Positions 3,231 through 25,328 of a stretch of 47,328 nucleotides of DNA are shown piece after piece (within the stretch, counting starts at the first letter, position 1; each line of letters starts with the position of its first letter). Made by a program: the position numbers and the translations under genes. Origin of the DNA: Pseudomonadota bacterium. GTDB taxonomy: Bacteria; Pseudomonadota; Alphaproteobacteria; JAGOMX01. The stretch lies in assembly GCA_039714795.1 (NCBI GenBank), contig JBDLIP010000001.1:1-47328 (forward strand), read 5' to 3'. The notes beneath the pieces were generated by a model that had not been told where the DNA came from, searched no databases, and saw nothing but the letters and a program-made list of their open reading frames with translations.

Positions 3231-4280
3231 CTACGCTGCGATCCTATGATCCTCCGGTTTACCTTCCGTGCTTTTACCATAAGCAGGTCGATTGAATCGA
3301 TCGCCAGAAACATCTAGGGCCTGGCATGCAATGGCCTTAATCTGGTCTGTTGCTTCATCCGTCTTGACCAACAATGTGTTGATAAGAGCCTGTTGTTCCT
3401 TAATTTTAGCTTCAAGCGAAACGGTTTTTTGCTGCATCAGCTTACGCTCCCCTTCTATTTCCTTAGCCCTTAGTTCAGTGTCAAACTTAAATCGGGTTTG
3501 AAGCTCTGAAGTAACCCGTTTTTCTGTCTCCTCTACAGCTTTAGCAATTTCAGCCGGAATAGCATCAACGGTTTTCTTAAACTGAGCCAATTCGCTCTCG
3601 CTTTGTTTCAAGTCAGCTTCTCGCTGCCCAAGCACCCTTTTCTTTTCGGTCATTTCTTTCTCGAGAGCATTCTGTTTGGCCTTATATTCATCTTCGTCTT
3701 TGCGCCTAGACATCTTAAGGCTATACGAATACTCCTCCTCATCACGGCTACGCTTTCTATCAAGTTCGGATTTAAATTCCTTATACTCTTGCTCCAAAGT
3801 TTGCCGTTCTTTGTGCCAGTGTTGTCGCTTTTCAGCCATATCGTTTTCAAAAGCTGCTTGGGACTCTTGTATTTTCAGTTGATGTTTTTTGCTTTCTTCT
3901 TCTTGAGTAATGATGAGGGCAGACAATGTGTGGGCAGTATCTTTAATGCCGTAAAGATTTTGCAAATGCTCTTGCTCGACCGATATAGATTTTTGCAAAT
4001 CACTCAACCGGCTGAACTCACCAACCAGTTGTTCACTTAAATGGTCAAGTTGCTTGGTTAGATTAATTTTAAGCTCCGCCAGATTAGAAATAATTGCGTG
4101 CTCTGAATTTTTGGTAGCTCTGGACAAAGTATCCCGCTGTTCCACTGATTTCTGCTGTTGCTGAGGATTCTTTTCAGATTGATTTTGTAATTGTTTAACG
4201 ACCTGCTCATAGGCTTCCAAAATCTGATTTTTGGTGTTTTTGGCAGAAATATCTGAGGGGATTTGAGTTTTCTCGGGCAT
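3231..4280 (-). CDS. Charged coiled-coil protein of unknown function
   Basis: The ORF is strongly E/K/Q/R-rich with heptad-like character throughout and no recognisable catalytic motif. The ATG at 4280 is preceded by 'aggag' 8 nt upstream. I prefer it over the TTG at 4304 of the ORF track. Confidence 0.6.
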   Translation of the reverse strand: MPEKTQIPSDISAKNTKNQILEAYEQVVKQLQNQSEKNPQQQQKSVEQRDTLSRATKNSEHAIISNLAELKINLTKQLDHLSEQLVGEFSRLSDLQKSISVEQEHLQNLYGIKDTAHTLSALIITQEEESKKHQLKIQESQAAFENDMAEKRQHWHKERQTLEQEYKEFKSELDRKRSRDEEEYSYSLKMSRRKDEDEYKAKQNALEKEMTEKKRVLGQREADLKQSESELAQFKKTVDAIPAEIAKAVEETEKRVTSELQTRFKFDTELRAKEIEGERKLMQQKTVSLEAKIKEQQALINTLLVKTDEATDQIKAIACQALDVSGDRFNRPAYGKSTEGKPEDHRIAA

Positions 4281-4315
4281 TGTCTTTTCTCCTAATTTTT
4301 CCAACTGTAAAGCGG

Positions 4316-13656: not shown

Positions 13657-14457
13657 ATGAAAAAACTTACTTGGACATTTATACTAGCCGGAGTTTTGCT
13701 TATAGGATACAACCCAGCAAAAGCTACAATCCTAGAAAATCCTATTCAGCAAAGTTCTGAATTAAACAATGCAGACAATGTGAATGGGCTTATCTTAATT
13801 AAAGGAGGCAAAAACGGTGGTGAGGGAGGAAAATCCTTTCGCCAACATAGAAAAGGTAGAGGAGATCACAAAACATTCAGGAAACACAGAAGCAGAGGTG
13901 ACCATAAAGCCTACAGGCACCATAAAAGACAAGGGGGCAAAAAACATTTTAGTCACAGAAGAGGCGGAAAACAGAATTATGCCCACAAAAGGCACCGTGG
14001 AGACCGACATTACTCCCATAAAAGACATCGTGGAGACAGGCATTACGCCCATAAAAGACATCGTGGAGACAGGCATTACTCCCATAAAAGACATCGTGGA
14101 GACAGGCATTACGCCCATAAACGGCATCGTGGTGAGCGTCATTACGCTCGAAGAGGATATCATGGTGAACGTCGTCATGCACGCTGGGAAAAGGGCAATA
14201 AAGAAAAGCACGAGAACTGGAAGAATGGCTACTACCGCAATCATAAAAATGGCTACTACCGGAAGGGCAAAGGTAGCCGTGAGTATGAGGGAGATCCTTC
14301 TGAGTTTGAGGAAACTGAGATATTTGAAGGCGATGAGGTCAGTGATGAGGCAAGTGTTGAGCCTGAGGGAATCATTGAAGAGACCGGTAGAGGCCTGATG
14401 CAAAGAGCTCAAGATCGAGTCGTAGATGAAATGTTAAACCGCGTCCTACCACAATAA
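13657..14457 (+). CDS. Secreted, highly basic H/R/K-rich tandem-repeat protein with six RGD motifs and an acidic C-terminal tail
   Basis: SD 'aggag'. Signal peptide 'MKKLTWTFILAGVLLIGYNPAKA'. Five 11-aa units 'HKRHRGDRHY(S/A)'. Acidic tail 'EYEGDPSEFEETEIFEGDEVSDEASVEPEG'. I recognise no homologue. Confidence 0.75.
   Translation: MKKLTWTFILAGVLLIGYNPAKATILENPIQQSSELNNADNVNGLILIKGGKNGGEGGKSFRQHRKGRGDHKTFRKHRSRGDHKAYRHHKRQGGKKHFSHRRGGKQNYAHKRHRGDRHYSHKRHRGDRHYAHKRHRGDRHYSHKRHRGDRHYAHKRHRGERHYARRGYHGERRHARWEKGNKEKHENWKNGYYRNHKNGYYRKGKGSREYEGDPSEFEETEIFEGDEVSDEASVEPEGIIEETGRGLMQRAQDRVVDEMLNRVLPQ
13984..14148 (+). repeat. 33-bp tandem repeat x5 inside the CDS
   Basis: Units start at 13984, 14017, 14050, 14083 and 14116. 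Units 2-4 are identical except for one g/t (Ala/Ser). Unit 5 diverges (RGE). Confidence 0.95.
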
Positions 14458-19091: not shown

Positions 19092-19946
19092 CTAGATATA
19101 CATCTCGTTATCTTCAGAGATAAACTTTTTGTCGTAACCTTCAAACATACAGCGCTCAACCACGTAGGCTTGGGAAAATTCCGTTTTAATACTCTGAAAC
19201 ACGACAGGAAACGGAACTGATATCGGCTGATCACCAGAAAAAGCAAGGCGTTTTTCGAGAGCCTCTCGCTGGCCGCCAATCCAATCAACCCTTTTCTCAT
19301 AAGGTGTACTGGGGTGTATTTTGTGGCTCCGCATACGATAAAGTCCAATGGCGTGCATATAGAGCTCTTTAAGGGCGCCCTGTTCAGCTTGAACCTCGTG
19401 CTCGTTTGCAGCCGCTGCACAGACAAGACCTTCTTCGATTTGCGCATAAAAGATAACAAGCTTTACATTCTTATCCGCTAACTTAGGCCAAATCGCATAA
19501 AAACTGGAAAAACAAAATTCCTTGTCAATTCCTTGAAAAAAGCTTTTGTTTTCTTCATTAACCGCCTCTCTGACTTTGTAGGCGATGTCTTTATTTTCAA
19601 ACCATTCGGGCCATGCATACCTCTCCAACATTTCCCTGTAGGCAATGCTTTTTGCTTTGCGTTGGGCTTTTGCTTTCTGAAAAATAAAAGGATAAGCTGC
19701 AAAACCAGTCGAAGAATTAGCCGTTGAGGATTGATATGCTTTCCGTTCAACGTATTCTGACTGGGCTTTCATAACCGCCTTATACCAAGAAAAATCAGCA
19801 CCACACGCAATACGAGTAAAAATATTGCCAGCTCTTCCCGATTGATCATTAAGGCTACAAATGTACGCCTCCCCCACTTTCAGCTTTTGCAGCGAGAAAG
19901 TCGGAAGAAATTTAGAAAGGTAATTAAAACGAACTTTTTCCAGCAT
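19092..19946 (-). CDS. Hypothetical protein with YcaO-like motif pattern (short 'mini-YcaO' candidate)
   Basis: 284-aa ORF. Three motifs occur in YcaO order. 'KAQSEYVERKAY' resembles E. coli YcaO 'SALGEYFERLS' (recalled from memory). 'SSTGFAAY...AYREMLERYAW' resembles 'VSNGMSAGN...LSEVFERYV'. 'AAAANEHEVQAEQGALKELY' resembles 'FGAHPDFGVALERTVTELL'. A proline motif 'SVPFPVV' lies near the C-terminus. Spacing between motifs 1 and 2 is far shorter than in canonical YcaO. The gene is likely real, but the function is tentative. Confidence 0.45.
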   Translation of the reverse strand: MLEKVRFNYLSKFLPTFSLQKLKVGEAYICSLNDQSGRAGNIFTRIACGADFSWYKAVMKAQSEYVERKAYQSSTANSSTGFAAYPFIFQKAKAQRKAKSIAYREMLERYAWPEWFENKDIAYKVREAVNEENKSFFQGIDKEFCFSSFYAIWPKLADKNVKLVIFYAQIEEGLVCAAAANEHEVQAEQGALKELYMHAIGLYRMRSHKIHPSTPYEKRVDWIGGQREALEKRLAFSGDQPISVPFPVVFQSIKTEFSQAYVVERCMFEGYDKKFISEDNEMYI

Positions 19947-20169
19947 TATTAACCTCCGCTAGTCTTTACAATCAAACAAAATACCCAGCCACTGTACCAA
20001 ATCTCCATCTCAATTGATACTTTTTTTAACTCACTAACATTAATTATATATATTCTTTTTCAATCTTTGACATGATGTTTCTGACGTCAAAAAACTCGAC
20101 TCCTAGCCACAATGACTGGCCATCCGAAACTAGAATGAGCTAATAACCCTAGAAAGAATTATCAACAAG

Positions 20170-20298
20170 CTACAAAATATCTCTCCCAAGTTCCGTCTGT
20201 TCAGAAAGGTTTTCTGCATTCGCGCGATAATTTTCCGCCACAAAACAAAACACCTGCGCCACCAAAATCGCCGATAATAATAGGCAAAATCTTTTCAT
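20170..20298 (-). CDS. Small exported or membrane-anchored peptide, paralogue 2 (42 aa)
   Basis: 'MKRFCLLLSAILVAQVFCFVAENYRANAENLSEQTELGRDIL'. SD 'ggag' lies 10 nt upstream of the ATG at 20298. TAG replaces the CAG of paralogue 1. The ORF track misses it because another frame is longer. Confidence 0.5.
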   Translation of the reverse strand: MKRFCLLLSAILVAQVFCFVAENYRANAENLSEQTELGRDIL

Positions 20299-20529
20299 TT
20301 TCTATCTTCTCCACAAATTGGGGGTACACACCCCTCACTTGCGAGCATCCTAATATTTGCCAGCTAGAAAGGCAAGAAAATATGATAACCAAGTTTGAGA
20401 GATTTTTCTAACTCACTGACATTGGCGGGAGATGTATCTTCTTTTTCAAGTTCTGATACGATCTTTCTCAAAAAAAAACCAACCCCCCAACCAAAATAAT
20501 CGGCCATACAAAACAATAATTAGCTAATG

Positions 20530-20676
20530 TTAGTTAGTATTATCAACAAGCTGCAAAATATCTCTCCCAAGTTCCATCCGCTCAGAAAGGTTCTCTGCAT
20601 TTGCGCGACAATTTTCCGCCACAAAACAAAACACCTGCGCTACTAAAATTGCTGATAGCAGATAAAATCTTTTCAT
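20530..20676 (-). CDS. Small exported or membrane-anchored peptide, paralogue 1 (48 aa)
   Basis: 'MKRFYLLSAILVAQVFCFVAENCRANAENLSERMELGRDILQLVDNTN'. SD 'ggagg' lies 9 nt upstream of the internal ATG at 20676. It has a positively charged n-region plus a 17-aa hydrophobic stretch. It begins 61 nt after the STAND stop. Confidence 0.55.
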   Translation of the reverse strand: MKRFYLLSAILVAQVFCFVAENCRANAENLSERMELGRDILQLVDNTN

Positions 20677-20737
20677 TTTCCACTTCCTCCATAATTGGGC
20701 CTCAAACACCACTCCCGGGCATCCTAATCTCTGACAG

Positions 20738-23700
20738 TTAGAAAGGCAAGAAAATATGATAACCAAAACTAAGAGAGTTTTCTAACTCACTGACATTAGC
20801 AGTAGATGTATCTTCGTTTTCAAGTGCTGATGCGATCTTCTCAATATTTATATGCTGGGGGAGGTAAAAATCCTTGAAAACTCTCAAGGATTTTTTCAAT
20901 AATTCTTTTTTTTCCGTGTTTTCTAGGGTTAGTGCCAGATTGGCCATGGCCATGGCAGTGGTGGGATGATTTTTGCCATAAGAATGGCGGATTGTTTTAA
21001 GTGATTGCTGCAAAAGTTTTCTGGCATTCTGGACATCTCCAAGCAAACGGTAGACATTTCCTAAGTTTGCAGAAACTATGGCCGCTAAGAGATGACCTTC
21101 TCCATATTTCTCGTTAAGCTTTTCAATAGATTTTATGAGCAGTTTTTTACTTTGCAAATAATCTCCTAAAATGCAATGAACAATTCCCATACGCGCAATT
21201 AGAATGGAAATCCATGCATTGGTTGTATTATCATCCTTTTCAACAAATTTGAACGCTTCAGCCAAAAGCTGTTTGCTTTCAGAAGTCTTGTGTGTTGCAG
21301 CACAAGCCAGGGCTAGATTTACCATTGAAAGCGCGGTCCAAATGTGACTGTCTCCATGCAATTTTCTGCGTATTTTTAGGGCATTTCGAAAATATGTTTC
21401 GCTTTTTTGTAAATGACCTAAATCATAATAAACAAATCCCAACAGGATCTGATTGTACGCTAGACTAGAAATTGATGTGGGACTTTGAGAGTTTATGTAA
21501 AGAGCATCATCCAGTATCGTCTTTCCCTCTATCCTTAGACCCAACACATAATTAATCCACCCTAGCATATATAACACCTGAGCCGTTTCGGCATGATTGT
21601 TACCATAATGTTTCTGGTAGAGCACTAGTGTTTGGGCAAGCACGTTTTTGACCGTACGAAACTCCCCTAACAACATGTGTGCTGTACCATACCGGAAAAG
21701 TGCGAGTGCTGTTTTAGGGTGCTCTTTCCCATAGGTTTTTTCACTAATTGCGGCAATTTTTTTAAAAGCGTCTCGCTTTTTAAAGCTTTTGCCCAAATGG
21801 TGATAAACGGAACCCAATAAAGTTAAAATATGCAAGTTGGTTGGATGATTTTCACCATACAGAGATTCATTAATCTTCAAGGCTTCTTCTAAGATATGTT
21901 CTGCTTTATGGGGCTCATTTAAAACACGATAGGTAAGAGTGTAGATAGAAACCTGAGTTTCATCCGAGGTAAAGGAGCTGACCTCTTTTAGAAACTCTTC
22001 CAACCGAGGGATTGTTTGATCTATTAAATGACGTTCTTTGTTAGAAAGATCCGTATTCTTTGTCCTTCCGGGATATATTTCATCAATAACAACTTTCATC
22101 CCTTTCAAATAGGTCAGTCTTTGTTCCTGATCTAATTTATTCCTGAGCCAGCTAGAGACCAAGCGGTGAACCGAGATATCGTCACCTGAGATTTTTATCA
22201 AAGAGTATTGCCGCAAAATACCGAGCAACCTATTCAATTCGCATTCTGATTTATTATTATTGCCTTCAGATAAGTACCGCACCAAAAGCGATTTGGGAAT
22301 GCTTGCTGGCTGACAAAAAGAGATAAAATTCAGCAAATCAAGCGCCTTCTCACCGTCTTTTGTTTTCTTAATAGAGTTTAAACTAAGTTCCCATGTCGCA
22401 TAGACCGGGTCATGTGTAATATTCAAAGGTGTATTGCTATCGGATAACAGATGTTCTCTTTCAGTTTCATACAATTTTAGATAGTTCGAAATTGAAATGG
22501 CGTTTTCTGTGATATAACCTGCGGCTTGAGATATAGCTAAAGGGGTATAATGCAACTCGTTTAATAGTTTGGCAGCTCTTTGTTTATAGAGCGGTCCTTT
22601 CTGAAAGTTAGAAGGAAGTTGCGCTTCGAGCAAGGCAAAAGATTCCTTTTTTGTCATCACGTCAACCTCAACTGCATTTTTTAGCTTATGGTTGCTTGAG
22701 GTTACGATGATGTGAGCATTATTGGGTAGGTAGTCGTATAGCATAACCATATTTGGTGCATTATCATAGACTAGTAGGGTGCTCCCCTTATTTTCAATCC
22801 AAGTTTTTACTTCCCTAATTTTTTGCGCATCAGACATATTATCGGAAAACAGCTTCAGTTTGTTCCCTATCTCAAAATAATCCACCTTTAATGACGATTC
22901 ATTTTCTGCATTAAGCCATGCTCTAAATTTATAGGATTGCCTAGGATAGTGAATGGCATACATCGCTAAAAAAGTCTTACCGATGCCTCCCAATCCAACC
23001 ACCCCTATGATCTTTGTTGATTGTTTTGCTTGATCTTTGTCCTCAAATTGACTCCATATAGAATCCAGCAGTTCGGTTCGCTTAATATAAGGGTCTGGCA
23101 GCAAAGGGAGGTTCCACTTGAGCATTGAAGCACCCTGCTCTTTTGCAGAAGGTGCTGGCGATGATGGTAATGTTGCATGTACAGAAGAGCTATTGTTTTG
23201 CTTGTCTGTATCCCAATATTTTATATTTAAAGTTAAGAGTACTACACAGATTACTCCAAAAAAAGTTACACTAGTCGCAATGAATTTTAAATAAAAATCT
23301 CTGTTTAGTTCTAGCCTTGCTGCTTGTCTTGGCGTATCTGGCTCCGGCATTTTAGCTATGTTTTGTGTTTTAAATTCATCAAAAGATTCACTGATTTTTG
23401 CTTTTGGCAATAGCGTAGCTAAAAGATTCAAGACAAACAGGTAGTAGTTATCAAAATCTCCCAGGGCAAAGCACCCTAAGCACGAGTCAGATTTTTGCAC
23501 GTCTTTGAAAGAGGTTACTGGATCAAGCGAGAGAAAAATTGTTTGCATTCCCTCCTTTTGATGTTCTGGATTGCTAAGTTCTGACGTATCAGCACCAATG
23601 ATGACAACATAAAAATCTGGGAAGGTGCTTGGTGAGATTTCTATCAGCTGGATTCCCGACAGCTCAAGATGCCTTTTCAAACGTTTTATGTTCTCTGAAC

Positions 23701-24124
23701 TAGATTTCACCTTTGTAGAATCGTAATGAATGTGACAGGCAAGTTTTTTTTCGTTCGTCAGACGAGCGATTTCCTTCAGTTCTTTTTCGAAATTTACTTG
23801 CACAGTCAACTGCTTATAATGCTGCCTGAGCAGATCATCTTTTCCAGATCGTTCGATAAATTTGCGGATACTATGACGGCCACTTGATCCTATTTTTTGC
23901 CCGACCGTATTAATATGCGTTTCCACCGTACTTGGCGCAATTGCAAGTCGTGCAGCCACAGATTTTACATCCCACCCGCTTACGATACAGGCCATAACGT
24001 CGATTTGCCGTCGGGTAAATTCTATTCCCTGTATTACATTTAAATGTTTGGAATATAAATCTTCAAAAACTCTATCTTTTCTATTTAACATAATTTTCAT
24101 CTTCATCTTTGCATTGATAGGCAT
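20738..24124 (-). CDS. STAND-class protein: N-terminal LuxR/GerE HTH, hydrophobic helix, NB-ARC NTPase, C-terminal TPR array
   Basis: 1128 aa. HTH 'FTRRQIDVMACIVSGWDVKSVAARLAIAPSTVETHINTVGQKIG' (aa ~35-80). Hydrophobic helix 'YLKFIATSVTFFGVICVVLLTLN' (aa 278-300, nt 23225-23293). Walker A 'GVVGLGGIGKT' (nt 22973-23002). Walker B 'LLVYDNA', then 'IIVTSSN' and the GLPLA-like 'TPLAISQAAGY'. The last ~400 aa are kinesin-light-chain-type TPRs with a recurring 'YG.xHPxTA....LG' pattern. Confidence 0.85.
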   Translation of the reverse strand: MPINAKMKMKIMLNRKDRVFEDLYSKHLNVIQGIEFTRRQIDVMACIVSGWDVKSVAARLAIAPSTVETHINTVGQKIGSSGRHSIRKFIERSGKDDLLRQHYKQLTVQVNFEKELKEIARLTNEKKLACHIHYDSTKVKSSSENIKRLKRHLELSGIQLIEISPSTFPDFYVVIIGADTSELSNPEHQKEGMQTIFLSLDPVTSFKDVQKSDSCLGCFALGDFDNYYLFVLNLLATLLPKAKISESFDEFKTQNIAKMPEPDTPRQAARLELNRDFYLKFIATSVTFFGVICVVLLTLNIKYWDTDKQNNSSSVHATLPSSPAPSAKEQGASMLKWNLPLLPDPYIKRTELLDSIWSQFEDKDQAKQSTKIIGVVGLGGIGKTFLAMYAIHYPRQSYKFRAWLNAENESSLKVDYFEIGNKLKLFSDNMSDAQKIREVKTWIENKGSTLLVYDNAPNMVMLYDYLPNNAHIIVTSSNHKLKNAVEVDVMTKKESFALLEAQLPSNFQKGPLYKQRAAKLLNELHYTPLAISQAAGYITENAISISNYLKLYETEREHLLSDSNTPLNITHDPVYATWELSLNSIKKTKDGEKALDLLNFISFCQPASIPKSLLVRYLSEGNNNKSECELNRLLGILRQYSLIKISGDDISVHRLVSSWLRNKLDQEQRLTYLKGMKVVIDEIYPGRTKNTDLSNKERHLIDQTIPRLEEFLKEVSSFTSDETQVSIYTLTYRVLNEPHKAEHILEEALKINESLYGENHPTNLHILTLLGSVYHHLGKSFKKRDAFKKIAAISEKTYGKEHPKTALALFRYGTAHMLLGEFRTVKNVLAQTLVLYQKHYGNNHAETAQVLYMLGWINYVLGLRIEGKTILDDALYINSQSPTSISSLAYNQILLGFVYYDLGHLQKSETYFRNALKIRRKLHGDSHIWTALSMVNLALACAATHKTSESKQLLAEAFKFVEKDDNTTNAWISILIARMGIVHCILGDYLQSKKLLIKSIEKLNEKYGEGHLLAAIVSANLGNVYRLLGDVQNARKLLQQSLKTIRHSYGKNHPTTAMAMANLALTLENTEKKELLKKSLRVFKDFYLPQHINIEKIASALENEDTSTANVSELENSLSFGYHIFLPF

Positions 24125-24184
24125 TGATTTACTTTAAGATCAGAATCTATACTTAAAGAAAAATGAACTCCCTATTTTCTGTTA

Positions 24185-24260
24185 CGCTCAAAGCTCAAAG
24201 TGCCTACTTACCAGTGCAAACTCTACGCTTGCAGAATATCATTAAGCTAGAGATTTTCAT
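24185..24260 (-). repeat. Degenerate MITE remnant in the STAND-gene upstream region
   Basis: 'gctcaaagtgcctacttaccagtgcaaactctacgcttgcagaatatcattaagctagagattttcatc' aligns with the core and right arm of the reverse-oriented element. The left arm is absent. Confidence 0.55.
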
Positions 24261-24474
24261 CTGTCATTGGTACGTATCAACAGCACATTTCCTTTTAACA
24301 TAAGTGTTGGGTTCACCGCAAATTTTTACAACAACCAACTAGCGGTATCATCAGGACCGCGGTTTTTGTCCAAATGATTTTTGAGTTTTACTTGTAAAAT
24401 TCAAAATCGTTTGGTAACAAAAACGTATATTTTTGAACCACGCATAAAATTGGAAGTTGTTTCGCTCACATTAC

Positions 24475-24924
24475 TTAGTTATAGTGAGTATTGCTGTGGT
24501 TGATGTTGAAGGCGGTGCCATCTTTAACAAATCCCTGTTCCAATTTTGGAACTGGAGCTTCATCTAACCGCCGGATGTTACCATAAAAAGGAGTGATGAC
24601 AATTTCGGCACTGATGGTGTGAGGGCACTTGCTATGAGGGCATTGGTGACAGGATCCATAACGAACGTACTCCAGCTGACCTTCGATAAAAACCCCATCC
24701 CTTTTTTTGAGGTGCAAGTCAATATACTCTCTGGCCATAAAGTCGGTAACTGTAACCGTGTGCCGCCGGCATCTGATGTAGGTAAACCCGGTGGGCTCTT
24801 CACCAAAATCCCGGGTGATCACACTGAGAATGGTTTGAGCGTGGGTGGTTTTATCCCCCAAAGTATAGGGTGCAGCATCAATATAGCCAAGAAGGGTTAC
24901 TCGGTTGATTGAGTTTGTTTGCAT
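24475..24924 (-). CDS. Divergent SSB-like OB-fold protein without the acidic C-terminal tip
   Basis: 'INRVTLLGYIDAAP', 'EYIDLHLKKRDGVFIEGQLEY.RY' and 'ISAEIVIT' align with E. coli SSB 'VNKVILVGNLGQDP', '[20 protein letters not shown]' and 'YTTEVVVN' (recalled from memory). A Cys/His-rich insert 'SCHQCPHSKCPH' is present (nt 24619-24651). The C-terminus 'NINHSNTHYN' lacks a DDDIPF-like tail. Confidence 0.6.
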   Translation of the reverse strand: MQTNSINRVTLLGYIDAAPYTLGDKTTHAQTILSVITRDFGEEPTGFTYIRCRRHTVTVTDFMAREYIDLHLKKRDGVFIEGQLEYVRYGSCHQCPHSKCPHTISAEIVITPFYGNIRRLDEAPVPKLEQGFVKDGTAFNINHSNTHYN

Positions 24925-25328
24925 GGGAAATTCCTTTTTGTTTTACGTCGCTTGAGTTTATGAAATACCTCAGAGCATTCTTGCCAAGGCATAAACGCGC
25001 GACAACCCACCACTGCAAAAAGAACAGGTGTCTTTTTTCTGACACAATTCTCCATCTCGCCGACCCACCAATGACCAACACAAAGTAGGCTGTTGATCTA
25101 CAGGGCCCCAAAACAAAGGGGATCTGCATAAAATGGTGGTGCCGGGGGTAGGGATGAGATAGAGTAGCGTCAGCCACGGTGTCGATCTCCTATGATCACA
25201 TTGCGGTTAGCGGTAACGTGAGTGTTGTTCTCACTCGGTTGCCGCGCTCATTTTTGATGCTACTCCGGTTGGGTGGCAAAAGCAACCCCCTATTTGTCAA
25301 AGTTGCTCAGTGAAAATGGGCTACCTAC

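Follow-up and report, generated by a model that had tools for sequence, protein, structure and literature searches.

Comparison of loci indicates that a large STAND regulator, a small peptide with a signal-like N-terminus, and a very compact YcaO enzyme (mini-YcaO) travel together as one cassette in Holosporales-like, protist-symbiont-like Alphaproteobacteria. We tentatively propose that this cassette may well be a self-contained peptide-signalling unit, which would both make and sense a modified peptide.

In the window, by which we mean the whole analyzed stretch of 47,328 nucleotides, the cassette is flanked by atpB/alaS. The four minus-strand genes listed in a row in the preliminary description of this DNA were all present at the same coordinates, as follows.

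20738–24124, minus strand: STAND regulator gene (1128 aa; from the ORF list; NCBI label 'tetratricopeptide repeat protein')
20530–20676, minus strand: small ORF A (48 aa; own Shine-Dalgarno (SD) sequence GGAGGAAG; start 61 nt past the STAND stop)
20170–20298, minus strand: small ORF B (42 aa; SD sequence GGAGAAG)
19092–19946, minus strand: mini-YcaO gene (284 aa; cytoplasmic product without signal peptide)

Both small ORFs carry strong SD sequences, in agreement with that description. The terminator scan yielded no intrinsic terminator between the STAND gene, the small ORFs, and the mini-YcaO gene, and the promoter and terminator scans of the window remained at chance level. Rfam and tRNA scans of the whole window returned no matches, and therefore no tRNA-linked integration site is present in it. 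The GC content of the region is low and island-like.

Thirteen loci, approached from the YcaO side, had enough flanking DNA to be informative. In 12 of them, a STAND gene was followed by a signal-peptide ORF of 45–73 aa and then by a mini-YcaO gene, and the flanking genes differed (LptD/CarD in L002, NMO/PGK in L003, and integrase/APH in L001). The gene order was rearranged in L006 and L021, with all three genes still adjacent, and the YcaO gene of L010 had neither STAND nor peptide within 2.6 kb. The three gene types thus co-occur outside this genome, in differing contexts and even in rearranged order. No published description of a STAND/peptide/mini-YcaO cassette was found in literature searches. 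These two results, together with the YcaO fold of the 284-aa protein described next, support the earlier proposal of a previously undescribed, functionally linked module.

The 284-aa protein, in which three motifs in YcaO order had been noticed, proved to be a genuine, very compact YcaO in comparisons of fold and motifs. Its AF2 model had a pLDDT of 92.8 and a pTM of 0.91, and the top 15 PDB matches obtained with Foldseek were all YcaOs. The matches 6ci7/6cib, 6gri/6gos chain D, and 4q84/4q85 had a probability of 1.0 and query-normalised TM-scores of 0.48–0.61, and the closest fold match was the TfuA-independent YcaO of M. kandleri. The candidate ATP-site residues are K60, E64, E67, R68, G81, E105, E108, R109, and E194, of which E64, E67, G81, E108, and E194 were 100% invariant among 153 full-length relatives, and K60, R68, E105, and R109 were at least 93% conserved in the same set. 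By hhalign, K60, E64, E67, and R68 fell on S71, E75, E78, and R79 of E. coli YcaO, respectively. STGFAAYP...EMLERY parallels SNGMSAGN...EVFERY of the E. coli enzyme, and ALKELY parallels TVTELL; apart from E202, the aligned E. coli residues are presumed ATP-site residues. EMLERY corresponds to EVFERY, which holds E202, and E202A has been used as an ATP-site variant of E. coli YcaO (PMC13063428). The three conserved ATP/Mg2+-binding motifs of the YcaO superfamily (Dunbar et al. 2014, as summarised in PMC8120280) are present in the mini-YcaO. Judged from its sequence and model, the enzyme looks active.

The mini-YcaO of the window scored 11.6 bits against Pfam YcaO (PF02624; cut-off, 25.7), and the same model matched 23 of 28 close relatives, six of them above the cut-off at 27–34 bits. 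The family profile matched no solved YcaO among the PDB sequences; the YcaO identity relative to the PDB was thus established by fold comparison, which worked where the sequence profile did not. No E1-like/Ocin-ThiF, TfuA, dehydrogenase, or RRE partner was detected by Pfam in any of the loci read, and the match to SagD (TIGR03604) reached only E~0.004, far under the cut-off. Assignment to the azoline/TOMM pathways is not supported, with their partner families absent and a core that is not Cys/Ser/Thr-rich, and assignment to the YcaO-TfuA thioamide type is not supported either, with tfuA absent from all loci read. Thioamide chemistry is still possible because TfuA-independent thioamidation occurs in M. 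kandleri (PMC5589413).

In ORF A (sequence MKRFYLLSAILVAQVFCFVAENCRA/NAENLSERMELGRDILQLVDNTN), a signal-like N-terminus of Sec type and a C-x-A site precede an acidic mature part that carries a conserved G-x3-L-x4-N motif. The small ORFs are homologous clade-wide. All copies have MK(K/R), a hydrophobic core of ~13–18 residues, and an A-x-A-like site, and their mature regions are short and acidic with 0–2 Cys. The motif that they share reads, in a fixed register, G-x3-L-x4 and then N at +9 or C at +10. The conserved position is Cys in L001, L006, and L021 and Asn in the majority of copies; this N/C motif is weak and is missing from ORF B of the window and from one SBP-type small protein. The precursor of L003/L012 is multi-core-like with three PAGNHDE(R) repeats, and precursor duplication is recurrent (window, L001, and L005). 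The small ORFs were not recognised by the family databases Pfam and NCBIfam, and no dedicated exporter or peptidase gene was found near the cassette in the loci read. A lipoprotein reading was ruled out, as neither Cys is preceded by a lipobox. At 12 other loci, both the position and the sequence of the small ORF are conserved, and dN/dS among six close copies was 0.13–0.6; these comparisons indicate that it is a real gene under purifying selection.

Of the two paralogous peptide ORFs described previously, both exist, but they are not independent paralogues: they are products of a ~378-nt tandem duplication. The tandem copies (20531–20839 and 20150–20465) are 86–89% identical, and the repeat unit spans the final ~100–130 nt of the STAND gene; the duplication is recent and local and included the STAND 3′ end. 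Because the repeat unit contains this end, a relic of the STAND C-terminus lies between ORFs A and B, and a further copy was detected.

20336–20516, minus strand: STAND 3′-end relic in repeat unit 2 (...SELEKEDTSPANVSELEKSLKLGYHIFLPF and stop; ORF 20364–20516 ending GYHIFLPF; repeat family D1, 86% identity)
20021–20082, minus strand: third, incomplete copy of the STAND 3′ end, shortly ahead of the YcaO gene (repeat families D4 and D7; alignment)

The relic is 74% identical to STAND residues 1094–1128 by tblastn. In ORF B, a TAG takes the place of a CAG codon of ORF A, so that the last six residues, including the tail with the conserved Asn, are missing. Between ORFs A and B, dS was 0.47 and dN was 0.06.

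Searches at the cassette found no conserved operator or RNA element. The 20-nt element AATGTCAGTGAGTTAGAAAA was rejected as a conserved operator: it has three copies in the window, but in relatives every occurrence lay within the 3′ end of the STAND gene and none upstream of YcaO. Since they are missing upstream of YcaO in close relatives, AATGTCAGTGAGTTAGAAAA and the copy at 20021–20082 are duplication relics. The palindrome TTGCC-N9-GGCAA across the STAND stop codon was unenriched in the window (4 matches versus 2.8 expected) and was also rejected; it partly encodes the conserved LPF tail of the STAND protein. The idea of a conserved RNA fold ahead of the small ORF was discarded, as the consensus reached only -8.7 kcal/mol with negligible covariation.

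The STAND protein consists, in order, of a GerE/LuxR HTH, an alpha/beta domain, one transmembrane (TM) helix, NB-ARC, DUF7779, a TPR_12/10 array, and a conserved ...FLPF-COOH tail.

23846–24058, minus strand: LuxR/GerE-type HTH (residues ~23–93; Pfam GerE E=1.6e-9, residues 36–83)
23357–23743, minus strand: uncharacterised alpha/beta domain in the HTH-to-TM interval (residues ~128–256; AF2, pLDDT 60–89)
23228–23284, minus strand: predicted TM helix (residues 281–299, FIATSVTFFGVICVVLLTL; Kyte-Doolittle 19-residue mean (KD19) 2.45)
22502–23065, minus strand: NB-ARC NTPase (residues 354–541; Pfam 29.4 bits versus a cut-off of 23.5)
22121–22354, minus strand: DUF7779, a winged-helix-like STAND module after NB-ARC (residues 591–668; Pfam 28.9 bits versus a cut-off of 27)
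20870–21853, minus strand: TPR_12/TPR_10 array, putative ligand sensor (residues ~758–1085; Pfam TPR_12 E=1.4e-45, TPR_10 E=1.2e-31, TPR_MalT)

The HTH was modelled by AF2 with a pLDDT of 83–93 and matched GerE (1fse) and NarL (1je8) in Foldseek with a probability of 1.0, a target-normalised TM-score of ~0.8, and an rmsd of ~1 Å. The alpha/beta domain had no Pfam match and no significant PDB fold match in Foldseek; a TIR-like or receiver-like identity was thus unsupported. The TM helix, which is followed by a disordered S/P/N-rich linker, falls within a long AF2 helix (266–309), and a single hydrophobic segment ~75–100 residues N-terminal to Walker A was found in all nine homologues examined, down to 22% identity. 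In the NB-ARC, Walker A (GLGGIGKT at 377) and Walker B (LLVYDNA) are intact and are kept in homologues, Walker A in all of them. With this P-loop, the winged-helix module, and the C-terminal repeat sensor, the protein belongs to the STAND (NB-ARC) NTPases. Its orthologues are 68–74% identical. Distant homologues with 24–31% identity were found without YcaO or peptide, and the STAND scaffold therefore needs neither. The excess of K/R on the N-terminal side of the lone TM helix predicts a periplasmic location for NB-ARC-TPR. Such a location would suit the sensing of an exported peptide, yet it would place an intact Walker-A NTPase in the periplasm, which normally contains no ATP.

The cassette YcaOs are a 26-member offshoot of a larger, unannotated mini-YcaO family comprising 433 or more clusters at 50% identity. 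Within the SBP-type diversity, the YcaOs linked to a STAND gene branch as a single clade (26 of 153), which implies a receptor swap around a constant core of enzyme and peptide. All five distant members sampled had an SBP_bac_5 gene (OppA-type peptide-binding fold) directly upstream, usually overlapping, together with an adjacent histidine kinase gene, and in four of the five an exported protein of 66–118 aa was encoded just upstream. A sigma54 response regulator was present at L018 and L025, and the tail SVRPSAMKNGTQD of L019 resembles the STAND-type tails SVRPAGNHDE and SLKPACNGTQD. That two unrelated types of receptor occur around one enzyme speaks more for modified-peptide signalling than for an antibiotic cluster or a defence gene. 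The plasmid collection gave no match for either YcaO type. The SBP/histidine-kinase branch was beyond the reach of the single sequence on which the preliminary description was based.

This family-wide evidence tilts toward signalling, and both a peptide-sensing switch and a RiPP cluster with its regulator, as put forward earlier, are retained as readings. In a signalling unit, the small ORF would give a pro-peptide with a Sec-type signal sequence, and the cytoplasmic mini-YcaO would use ATP to activate a backbone amide of this pro-peptide. The likeliest modification site would be the sole conserved position of the mature part, near its C-terminus, at which a small residue precedes Asn or, in some lineages, Cys; to our knowledge, Asn has not been described as a nucleophile for YcaO enzymes. 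The pro-peptide would be exported, its signal sequence would be cleaved, and the membrane-anchored STAND protein would sense the mature peptide through its TPR array. Ligand binding would flip the NB-ARC nucleotide switch and cause oligomerisation, whereupon the N-terminal LuxR-type HTHs would assemble on DNA and alter the transcription of target genes, among them probably the cassette's own. We infer the peptide as YcaO substrate, its export, its binding by the TPRs, and the genes under HTH control, whereas the gene set, the folds, the ATP-site conservation, the synteny, the purifying selection on the peptide, and the parallel SBP/histidine-kinase architecture of the sister clades are observed.

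Among known systems, RRNPP quorum sensing (Rap-Phr, PlcR-PapR, NprR-NprX, and AimR-AimP) shares with the cassette an HTH output, a TPR regulator, and a directly adjoining pro-peptide gene. The likeness drawn earlier holds for the TPR regulator followed by a signal-bearing pro-peptide gene, whereas by domains and host the cassette does not belong to the RRNPP family. RRNPP receptors are soluble cytoplasmic TPR proteins of Firmicutes or phages without NTPase or TM helix and with an N-terminal XRE-type HTH or phosphatase; the cassette receptor, in contrast, has NB-ARC, a TM helix, and a LuxR-type HTH, and its hosts are Gram-negative Alphaproteobacteria. Moreover, the cassette includes a modifying enzyme, implies no Opp-type re-import, and may sense its ligand extracytoplasmically. 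The combination of DNA-binding domain, STAND NTPase, and TPR sensor is shared with AfsR/SARP and MalT/LAL, and the order head-NB-ARC-TPR is that of AfsR. However, the head is GerE/LuxR and not SARP/BTAD, the LuxR HTH of MalT/LAL is C-terminal whereas that of the cassette (residues 23–93) is N-terminal to NB-ARC, and only the cassette STAND has a TM helix between head and NTPase. NCBIfam matches to AfsR and MalT were weak, the MalT model covering the HTH only.

A small, fast-diverging precursor, a more conserved C-terminal peptide, and a link to NB-ARC-TPR are also known from FxSxx-COOH/FxsT (NF040586) and NTPase-coupled peptide-processing modules (Kaur et al. 2020, PMC7159879, where YcaO is not mentioned). 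Unlike the FxsT system of Actinobacteria, the alphaproteobacterial cassette lacks the FxSxx tail, the radical SAM/SPASM enzyme, and the zincin peptidase. The STAND protein scored 278.5 bits against NCBIfam FxSxx_TPR, under the cut-off of 300, and FxsT membership, defined by at least 300 bits together with an FxSxx-COOH precursor and FxsB, does not apply to it. The pairing of SBP and membrane histidine kinase in the sister mini-YcaO clades follows LuxP-LuxQ logic, and the order of cytoplasmic DNA-binding head, one TM helix, and large C-terminal sensor in the window STAND is that of ToxR/CadC-type proteins. We know of no SBP/histidine kinase or ToxR/CadC-type system with a YcaO, and of no ToxR-like protein with an NB-ARC NTPase in its C-terminal part.

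A broader version of the signalling reading, quite improbable in our estimate, is that the mini-YcaO family constitutes a class of peptide pheromone systems of Gram-negative bacteria that has gone unrecognised. A partner-free minimal YcaO would modify the backbone of a Sec-exported peptide, whose small-residue-Asn/Cys site might then carry a thioamide or an Asn-/Cys-derived heterocycle or amidine, and the Holosporales-type receptor would be a ToxR-like tethered LuxR regulator with NB-ARC-TPR outside the cytoplasmic membrane. Under this version, the extracytoplasmic NTPase would be workable only because host ATP would reach the periplasm of an intracellular bacterium. The topology puzzle of the STAND protein is well defined and within reach of simple reporter fusions, and the SBP/histidine-kinase branch offers organisms and constructs for a direct test of the signalling idea. 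Modified-peptide quorum sensing is textbook knowledge for Gram-positive bacteria and, as far as we know, almost unknown in Proteobacteria, and YcaO enzymes have been studied for their part in making antibiotics or in modifying housekeeping proteins, whereas signal-transduction operons have not been the setting of such work. Should the proposed mechanism hold, the enzyme would be the smallest self-sufficient YcaO known, of use in enzymology and engineering, and the chemistry of its peptide signal would be new. The receptor would be of a new type, with a LuxR head joined to a membrane anchor and an NB-ARC/TPR switch, and obligate protist symbionts (Holosporales-like), which cannot be grown alone, would have a system for communication or host sensing.

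The cassette could also be a RiPP-type cluster, a somewhat unlikely reading in which the YcaO-modified, Sec-exported peptide would be an effector (toxin, metallophore, or host-directed factor) and the STAND protein a pathway-specific activator that senses another cue via its TPRs. The YcaO fold, the ATP/Mg2+ motifs, and the adjacent short precursor-like gene are common to the cassette, YcaO RiPP pathways (McbD/microcin B17 azol(in)es, thioamitides, and bottromycin-/streptamidine-type amidines), and standalone YcaOs, and a YcaO beside a conserved short precursor is a RiPP signature. The multi-core-like precursor with its three repeats in L003/L012, the precursor duplications in the window, L001, and L005, which are common for RiPP precursors, and the 278.5-bit score of the NB-ARC-TPR region against the FxsT model of another RiPP-like system point the same way. 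However, the mini-YcaO differs from known YcaOs in having only ~284 aa and no E1-like/Ocin-ThiF, TfuA, dehydrogenase, or RRE, and the cassette differs from YcaO RiPPs in that its precursor has a Sec-type signal sequence instead of a classical leader and Asn/Cys at the conserved position, and in that its enzyme is linked to receptors/transducers and not to exporters/immunity genes. Immunity gene, exporter, protease, dehydrogenase, and RRE partner are absent from every locus read, the mature peptides are short, acidic, and Cys-poor, and the sister-family enzyme is flanked by a peptide-binding SBP on one side and a histidine kinase on the other, in overlapping frames, a setting that is hard to explain for a pure effector.

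It is unlikely that the mini-YcaO instead modifies a protein, such as the receptor, or partners the transducer non-catalytically, with the exported peptide as an unmodified ligand. Precedents are the thioamidation of uL16 by E. coli YcaO (PMC13063428) and the TfuA-independent thioamidation of McrA in M. kandleri (PMC5589413), whose YcaO is the best fold match. The lack of an RRE or partner, the overlap of the sister-clade frames with SBP and histidine kinase, and the low dN/dS of ORF B, which lacks the putative modification site, also agree with this possibility. Against it, the exported small protein is the only partner common to both receptor contexts, the STAND scaffold also exists without YcaO, and the SBP and TPR receptors are unrelated, so that a shared protein substrate is not evident.

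The preliminary description had also considered an Avs-like STAND gene that merely sits beside the others. NB-ARC and TPR STANDs are common in conflict systems (PMC7159879), related matches (P0188 and P0192) have OTU or CHAT N-termini, and the regional GC is low and island-like. A defence NTPase of the Avs or conflict-system type with peptide and YcaO as unrelated neighbours is nevertheless very improbable, because the N-terminal 'effector' is a canonical GerE HTH and not a killing domain, PADLOC returned no Avs or other STAND defence match but only generic TPR and weak HTH, and the peptide/YcaO synteny survives different flanks and rearrangement. That the small ORFs are untranslated chance frames in duplicated intergenic DNA, as their tandem-repeat location, the truncation of ORF B, and the lack of family-database recognition might suggest, is hardly credible in view of the strong SD sequences of both copies, the dN/dS of 0.13–0.6, and the homologous ORFs with the same signal-like N-terminus and position at 12 other loci.

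The cassette occupies the minus strand of a complete 47,328-bp contig from a MAG labelled 'Pseudomonadota bacterium', and the coordinates of its four ORFs in the preliminary description proved exact. The features are as follows:

20738–24124, minus strand: STAND gene, ORF of 1128 aa
20530–20676, minus strand: small ORF A, 48 aa
20364–20516, minus strand: relic of the STAND C-terminus between ORF A and ORF B, an ORF ending in ...GYHIFLPF and a stop codon
20170–20298, minus strand: small ORF B, 42 aa
19092–19946, minus strand: mini-YcaO ORF, 284 aa

The start of ORF A lies 61 nt beyond the stop codon of the STAND gene, and ORFs A and B alike have strong Shine-Dalgarno sequences. Housekeeping genes lie on both flanks: the F0 ATP synthase operon (a, c, b', b) on one, and a weak SSB-like ORF, alaS, and recA on the other. 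The G+C content was 38–40% over window positions 20001–25000 and 43–50% in the flanking housekeeping genes, which is consistent with the cassette having been inserted there, with the atp F0 operon on one side and alaS-recA on the other. The window contains neither a tRNA nor an integrase gene. A 149-aa ORF (24475–24924, minus strand) adjoins the STAND gene in the same low-GC stretch; its sole match was a weak one to OB-fold/SSB proteins (E~0.02), it contains a Cys/His-rich stretch, CHQCPHSKCPH, and it does not accompany the cassette in other loci. ORFs of 357 aa (3231–4304, minus strand) and 266 aa (13657–14457, plus strand) had no Pfam match at E<=1e-5.

ORFs A and B had been described as tandem small genes, each with its own Shine-Dalgarno sequence. 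Both are present in that form; their anatomy required correction, as they are copies within a tandem duplication of ~378 nt that includes the 3' end of the STAND gene. The copies (20531–20839 and 20150–20465) are 86–89% identical; a third, incomplete copy is located at 20021–20082. Because each repeat unit begins inside the STAND 3' end, a relic of the STAND tail is found between the two ORFs. A TAG codon in ORF B corresponds to CAG in ORF A, leaving ORF B without the final six residues. Similar duplications of STAND tail and peptide gene originated independently in two loci around homologues, L001, with a 78-nt STAND-tail relic before YcaO, and L005, with an 807-nt tandem unit that holds a relic of the YcaO 5' end and another peptide gene, differing from the first in the last residues only (DSDDD versus DAQSD). 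A 20-nt element occurring three times in the window was considered as an operator and rejected; it is absent upstream of YcaO in close relatives and was read as a relic.

The 284-aa protein is a miniature YcaO. It scored 11.6 bits against Pfam YcaO, below the cut-off of 25.7, and had no match in NCBIfam or PADLOC, nor in the PDB by sequence, even with the family profile; 23 of its 28 close relatives matched Pfam YcaO, six of them above the curated cut-off. The AF2 model, built on its close relatives, had a pLDDT of 92.8 and a pTM of 0.91, and its best 15 Foldseek matches in the PDB were all YcaOs with a probability of 1.0 (M. kandleri YcaO, McbD, and E. coli YcaO). By hhalign, K60, E64, E67, and R68 fell on S71, E75, E78, and R79 of E. 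coli YcaO, respectively; the roles of the E. coli residues other than E202 are presumed by us. The segments STGFAAYP...EMLERY and ALKELY parallel SNGMSAGN...EVFERY and TVTELL of the E. coli protein. Among 153 full-length relatives, five positions (E64, E67, G81, E108, and E194) are invariant, and K60, R68, E105, and R109 are each retained by at least 93%. The fold and the three motif regions thus bear out the YcaO reading of the preliminary description. Three ATP-binding motifs are common to YcaO proteins (PMC8120280), and E202A of E. coli YcaO is in use as an ATP-site variant (PMC13063428). Because it lacks a signal peptide, the mini-YcaO is cytoplasmic.

In the STAND protein, Pfam identified a GerE/LuxR HTH (residues 36–83), NB-ARC (354–541), and DUF7779 (591–668), followed by a long TPR_12/TPR_10 array. 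The AF2 model of residues 1–345 (pLDDT 71.7) comprised an HTH (23–93), a long helix, an alpha/beta domain (128–256), a helix (266–309), and a disordered linker. The GerE-type HTH matched GerE and NarL in Foldseek with a probability of 1.0 and an rmsd of about 1 A, and the alpha/beta domain had no PDB match. Helix 266–309 encloses the single strong transmembrane-type segment detected by hydropathy (residues 281–299; window 23228–23284). Exactly one such segment, ~75–100 residues before an intact Walker A motif, was found in all nine homologues compared (from the window, L001–L003, L006, and L026–L028), down to 22% identity, and Lys/Arg are more numerous on its N-terminal side in most of them. 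Read plainly, this charge bias predicts a ToxR-like topology, with the HTH in the cytoplasm and NB-ARC-TPR outside, which would suit sensing of an exported peptide. The same prediction would place an apparently functional NTPase in the periplasm, normally devoid of ATP, which is the main conflict in this reading. The C-termini carry a conserved hydrophobic tail (window 20738–20770 and L001, L002, L003, L005, and L026; variants GYHIFLPF, GYYILLPL, NYNLILPL, IQYPF, YILLLPF, and GYSIIVLP), which might imitate a peptide in the TPR groove and so be autoinhibitory. A homologue without YcaO also has this tail, which is therefore not specific to the cassette.

Loci were gathered from assemblies, GTDB genomes, and metagenomes starting from YcaO, giving about fourteen loci of the STAND type. 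A STAND homologue was detected by tblastn directly upstream of YcaO in all loci with sufficient upstream DNA but one, with a 45–73-aa ORF, beginning MK(K/R) and continuing with a hydrophobic stretch, between them. The flanks vary by locus, even where the YcaOs are 79% identical, and two loci, L006 and L021, have a rearranged order, peptide (minus), YcaO (plus), and STAND (minus), in which the three genes are still adjacent. The three gene types thus occur together outside this genome. The single exception is L010 (1–4237), where the genes in front of an intact 284-aa mini-YcaO encode an isochorismatase-like protein and a 134-aa HTH protein, and where neither a STAND gene nor a peptide gene lies less than 2.6 kb away. 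The named host is Candidatus Finniella (Holosporales, Paracaedibacteraceae); further hosts are MAGs labelled Alphaproteobacteria, Rickettsiales, and, in one case, Gammaproteobacteria. Distant GerE-TM-NB-ARC-TPR proteins (24–31% identity) from Rickettsiales and Alphaproteobacteria MAGs have neither YcaO nor a peptide gene beside them; therefore, the STAND scaffold is a general type of regulator, and its recruitment to the enzyme-peptide pair occurred in one lineage.

The small peptides can be aligned over the whole STAND-linked clade. Common features are a basic N-terminus, a hydrophobic core of ~13–18 residues, a small-x-small site (C-x-A, A-A-A, A-S-A, V-K-A, S-I-A, or V-F-A), and an acidic mature part of ~16–50 residues with the motif G-x3-L-x4 in fixed register, then Asn at +9 or Cys at +10; this short Asn/Cys motif could be over-read. 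From these features we infer that the small ORF encodes an exported, cleaved peptide. No dedicated exporter or peptidase gene was found near it. A 73-aa precursor at L003 9676–9897 (= L012 6745–6966) has three tandem PAGNHDE(R) repeats with a DNA period of 39 nt, an arrangement that resembles a pro-peptide with several cores or several signals.

A far larger mini-YcaO family exists, and the cassette represents one of its side branches. A profile search of 1.84 billion representatives yielded 433 clusters (50% identity) at E<=1e-3 and 123 at E<=1e-30. Almost all members are 290–320 aa, all named ones are labelled 'hypothetical protein', and none is covered by an NCBIfam model. A neighbour-joining tree of 153 enzymes groups the 26 STAND-linked ones in a single clade within the diversity of a second type. 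Five distant mini-YcaOs of this second type were sampled (P0040, P0033, P0056, P0166, and P0175; loci L017, L018, L019/L020, L023/L024, and L025). Most of the loci of the two types are metagenomic contigs without taxonomy. All five have an SBP_bac_5 gene (OppA-type oligopeptide-binding fold) immediately upstream, usually overlapping the YcaO start, and an adjoining histidine kinase gene; a 66–118-aa protein with a signal sequence is encoded just upstream of the SBP in four, and L018 and L025 contain a sigma54 response regulator. Overlapping reading frames are frequent in these operons. One of the small proteins has the tail SVRPSAMKNGTQD, similar to SVRPAGNHDE and SLKPACNGTQD, which are tails of the STAND type. 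In L025, a trypsin-like protease gene lies just upstream.

The core that stays constant is the mini-YcaO and an exported small protein. Two unrelated receptor/transducer sets are exchanged around it, one made up of SBP, histidine kinase, and response regulator and the other of a TM-anchored TPR-NB-ARC-HTH protein, a pattern to be expected of a system of signal and receptor. The best explanation, which we favor tentatively, is a YcaO-modified, exported peptide sensed by the TPR, with output via the LuxR heads; its chemistry, export, ligand binding, DNA targets, and topology are all inferred. Modification of the pro-peptide by YcaO would take place in the cytoplasm, the conserved small-residue-Asn/Cys site being its most plausible target, and the product would depart through Sec. 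The TPR array, or the SBP in sister clades, may bind the mature peptide, and binding would switch the NB-ARC module, leading to assembly of the LuxR heads on DNA.

A RiPP effector with its pathway regulator is a doubtful but serious candidate. However, immunity, export, and tailoring genes were present in none of the loci, and an antibiotic cluster would for this reason not be expected to show the pattern above; nor is the cassette of the TOMM/azoline or YcaO-TfuA type, because the partner genes are absent. It is rather unlikely that YcaO modifies a protein, or partners the transducer, with the peptide as an unmodified ligand. That the STAND protein serves defence beside unrelated neighbours is very improbable: it is not an Avs protein, because no killing effector and no Avs or STAND defence-system match in PADLOC were found. 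Non-coding small ORFs deserve hardly any credence, with dN/dS of 0.13–0.6 among six close copies and of 0.13 (dS 0.47) between ORFs A and B of the window.

The NB-ARC, TM helix, LuxR head, and Gram-negative hosts distinguish the cassette from RRNPP systems. The STAND protein is not FxsT, because its NB-ARC-TPR part scored 278.5 bits against the NCBIfam model (cut-off 300) and the FxSxx peptide and radical SAM enzyme are absent, and it is not MalT/LAL, in which the domains follow the opposite order. In the arrangement of its domains it is like AfsR, and in being tethered to the membrane it is like ToxR. In the literature, nothing relevant was found on YcaO combined with NB-ARC/TPR, signal peptides, histidine kinases, or Holosporales. 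The paper of Kaur et al. 2020 (PMC7159879), which describes NTPase conflict systems coupled to small peptides that are processed, does not mention YcaO.

Several loci showed further variation. L027 (1–9330) and L028 (9877–10947), both from Alphaproteobacteria MAGs, hold several distant GerE-TM-NB-ARC-TPR paralogues per neighbourhood, adjoining AAA/Sel1, Imm39, and DUF7716 genes and no YcaO. In L005 (3324–8063), STAND is split into 384-aa and 735-aa ORFs by a frameshift, pseudogenization, or assembly error. L001 (2537–9504) has two tandem STAND paralogues of 1083 and 1082 aa before a single peptide and YcaO pair, and the integrase, APH, and acetyltransferase genes just upstream suggest that this region is a mobile island.
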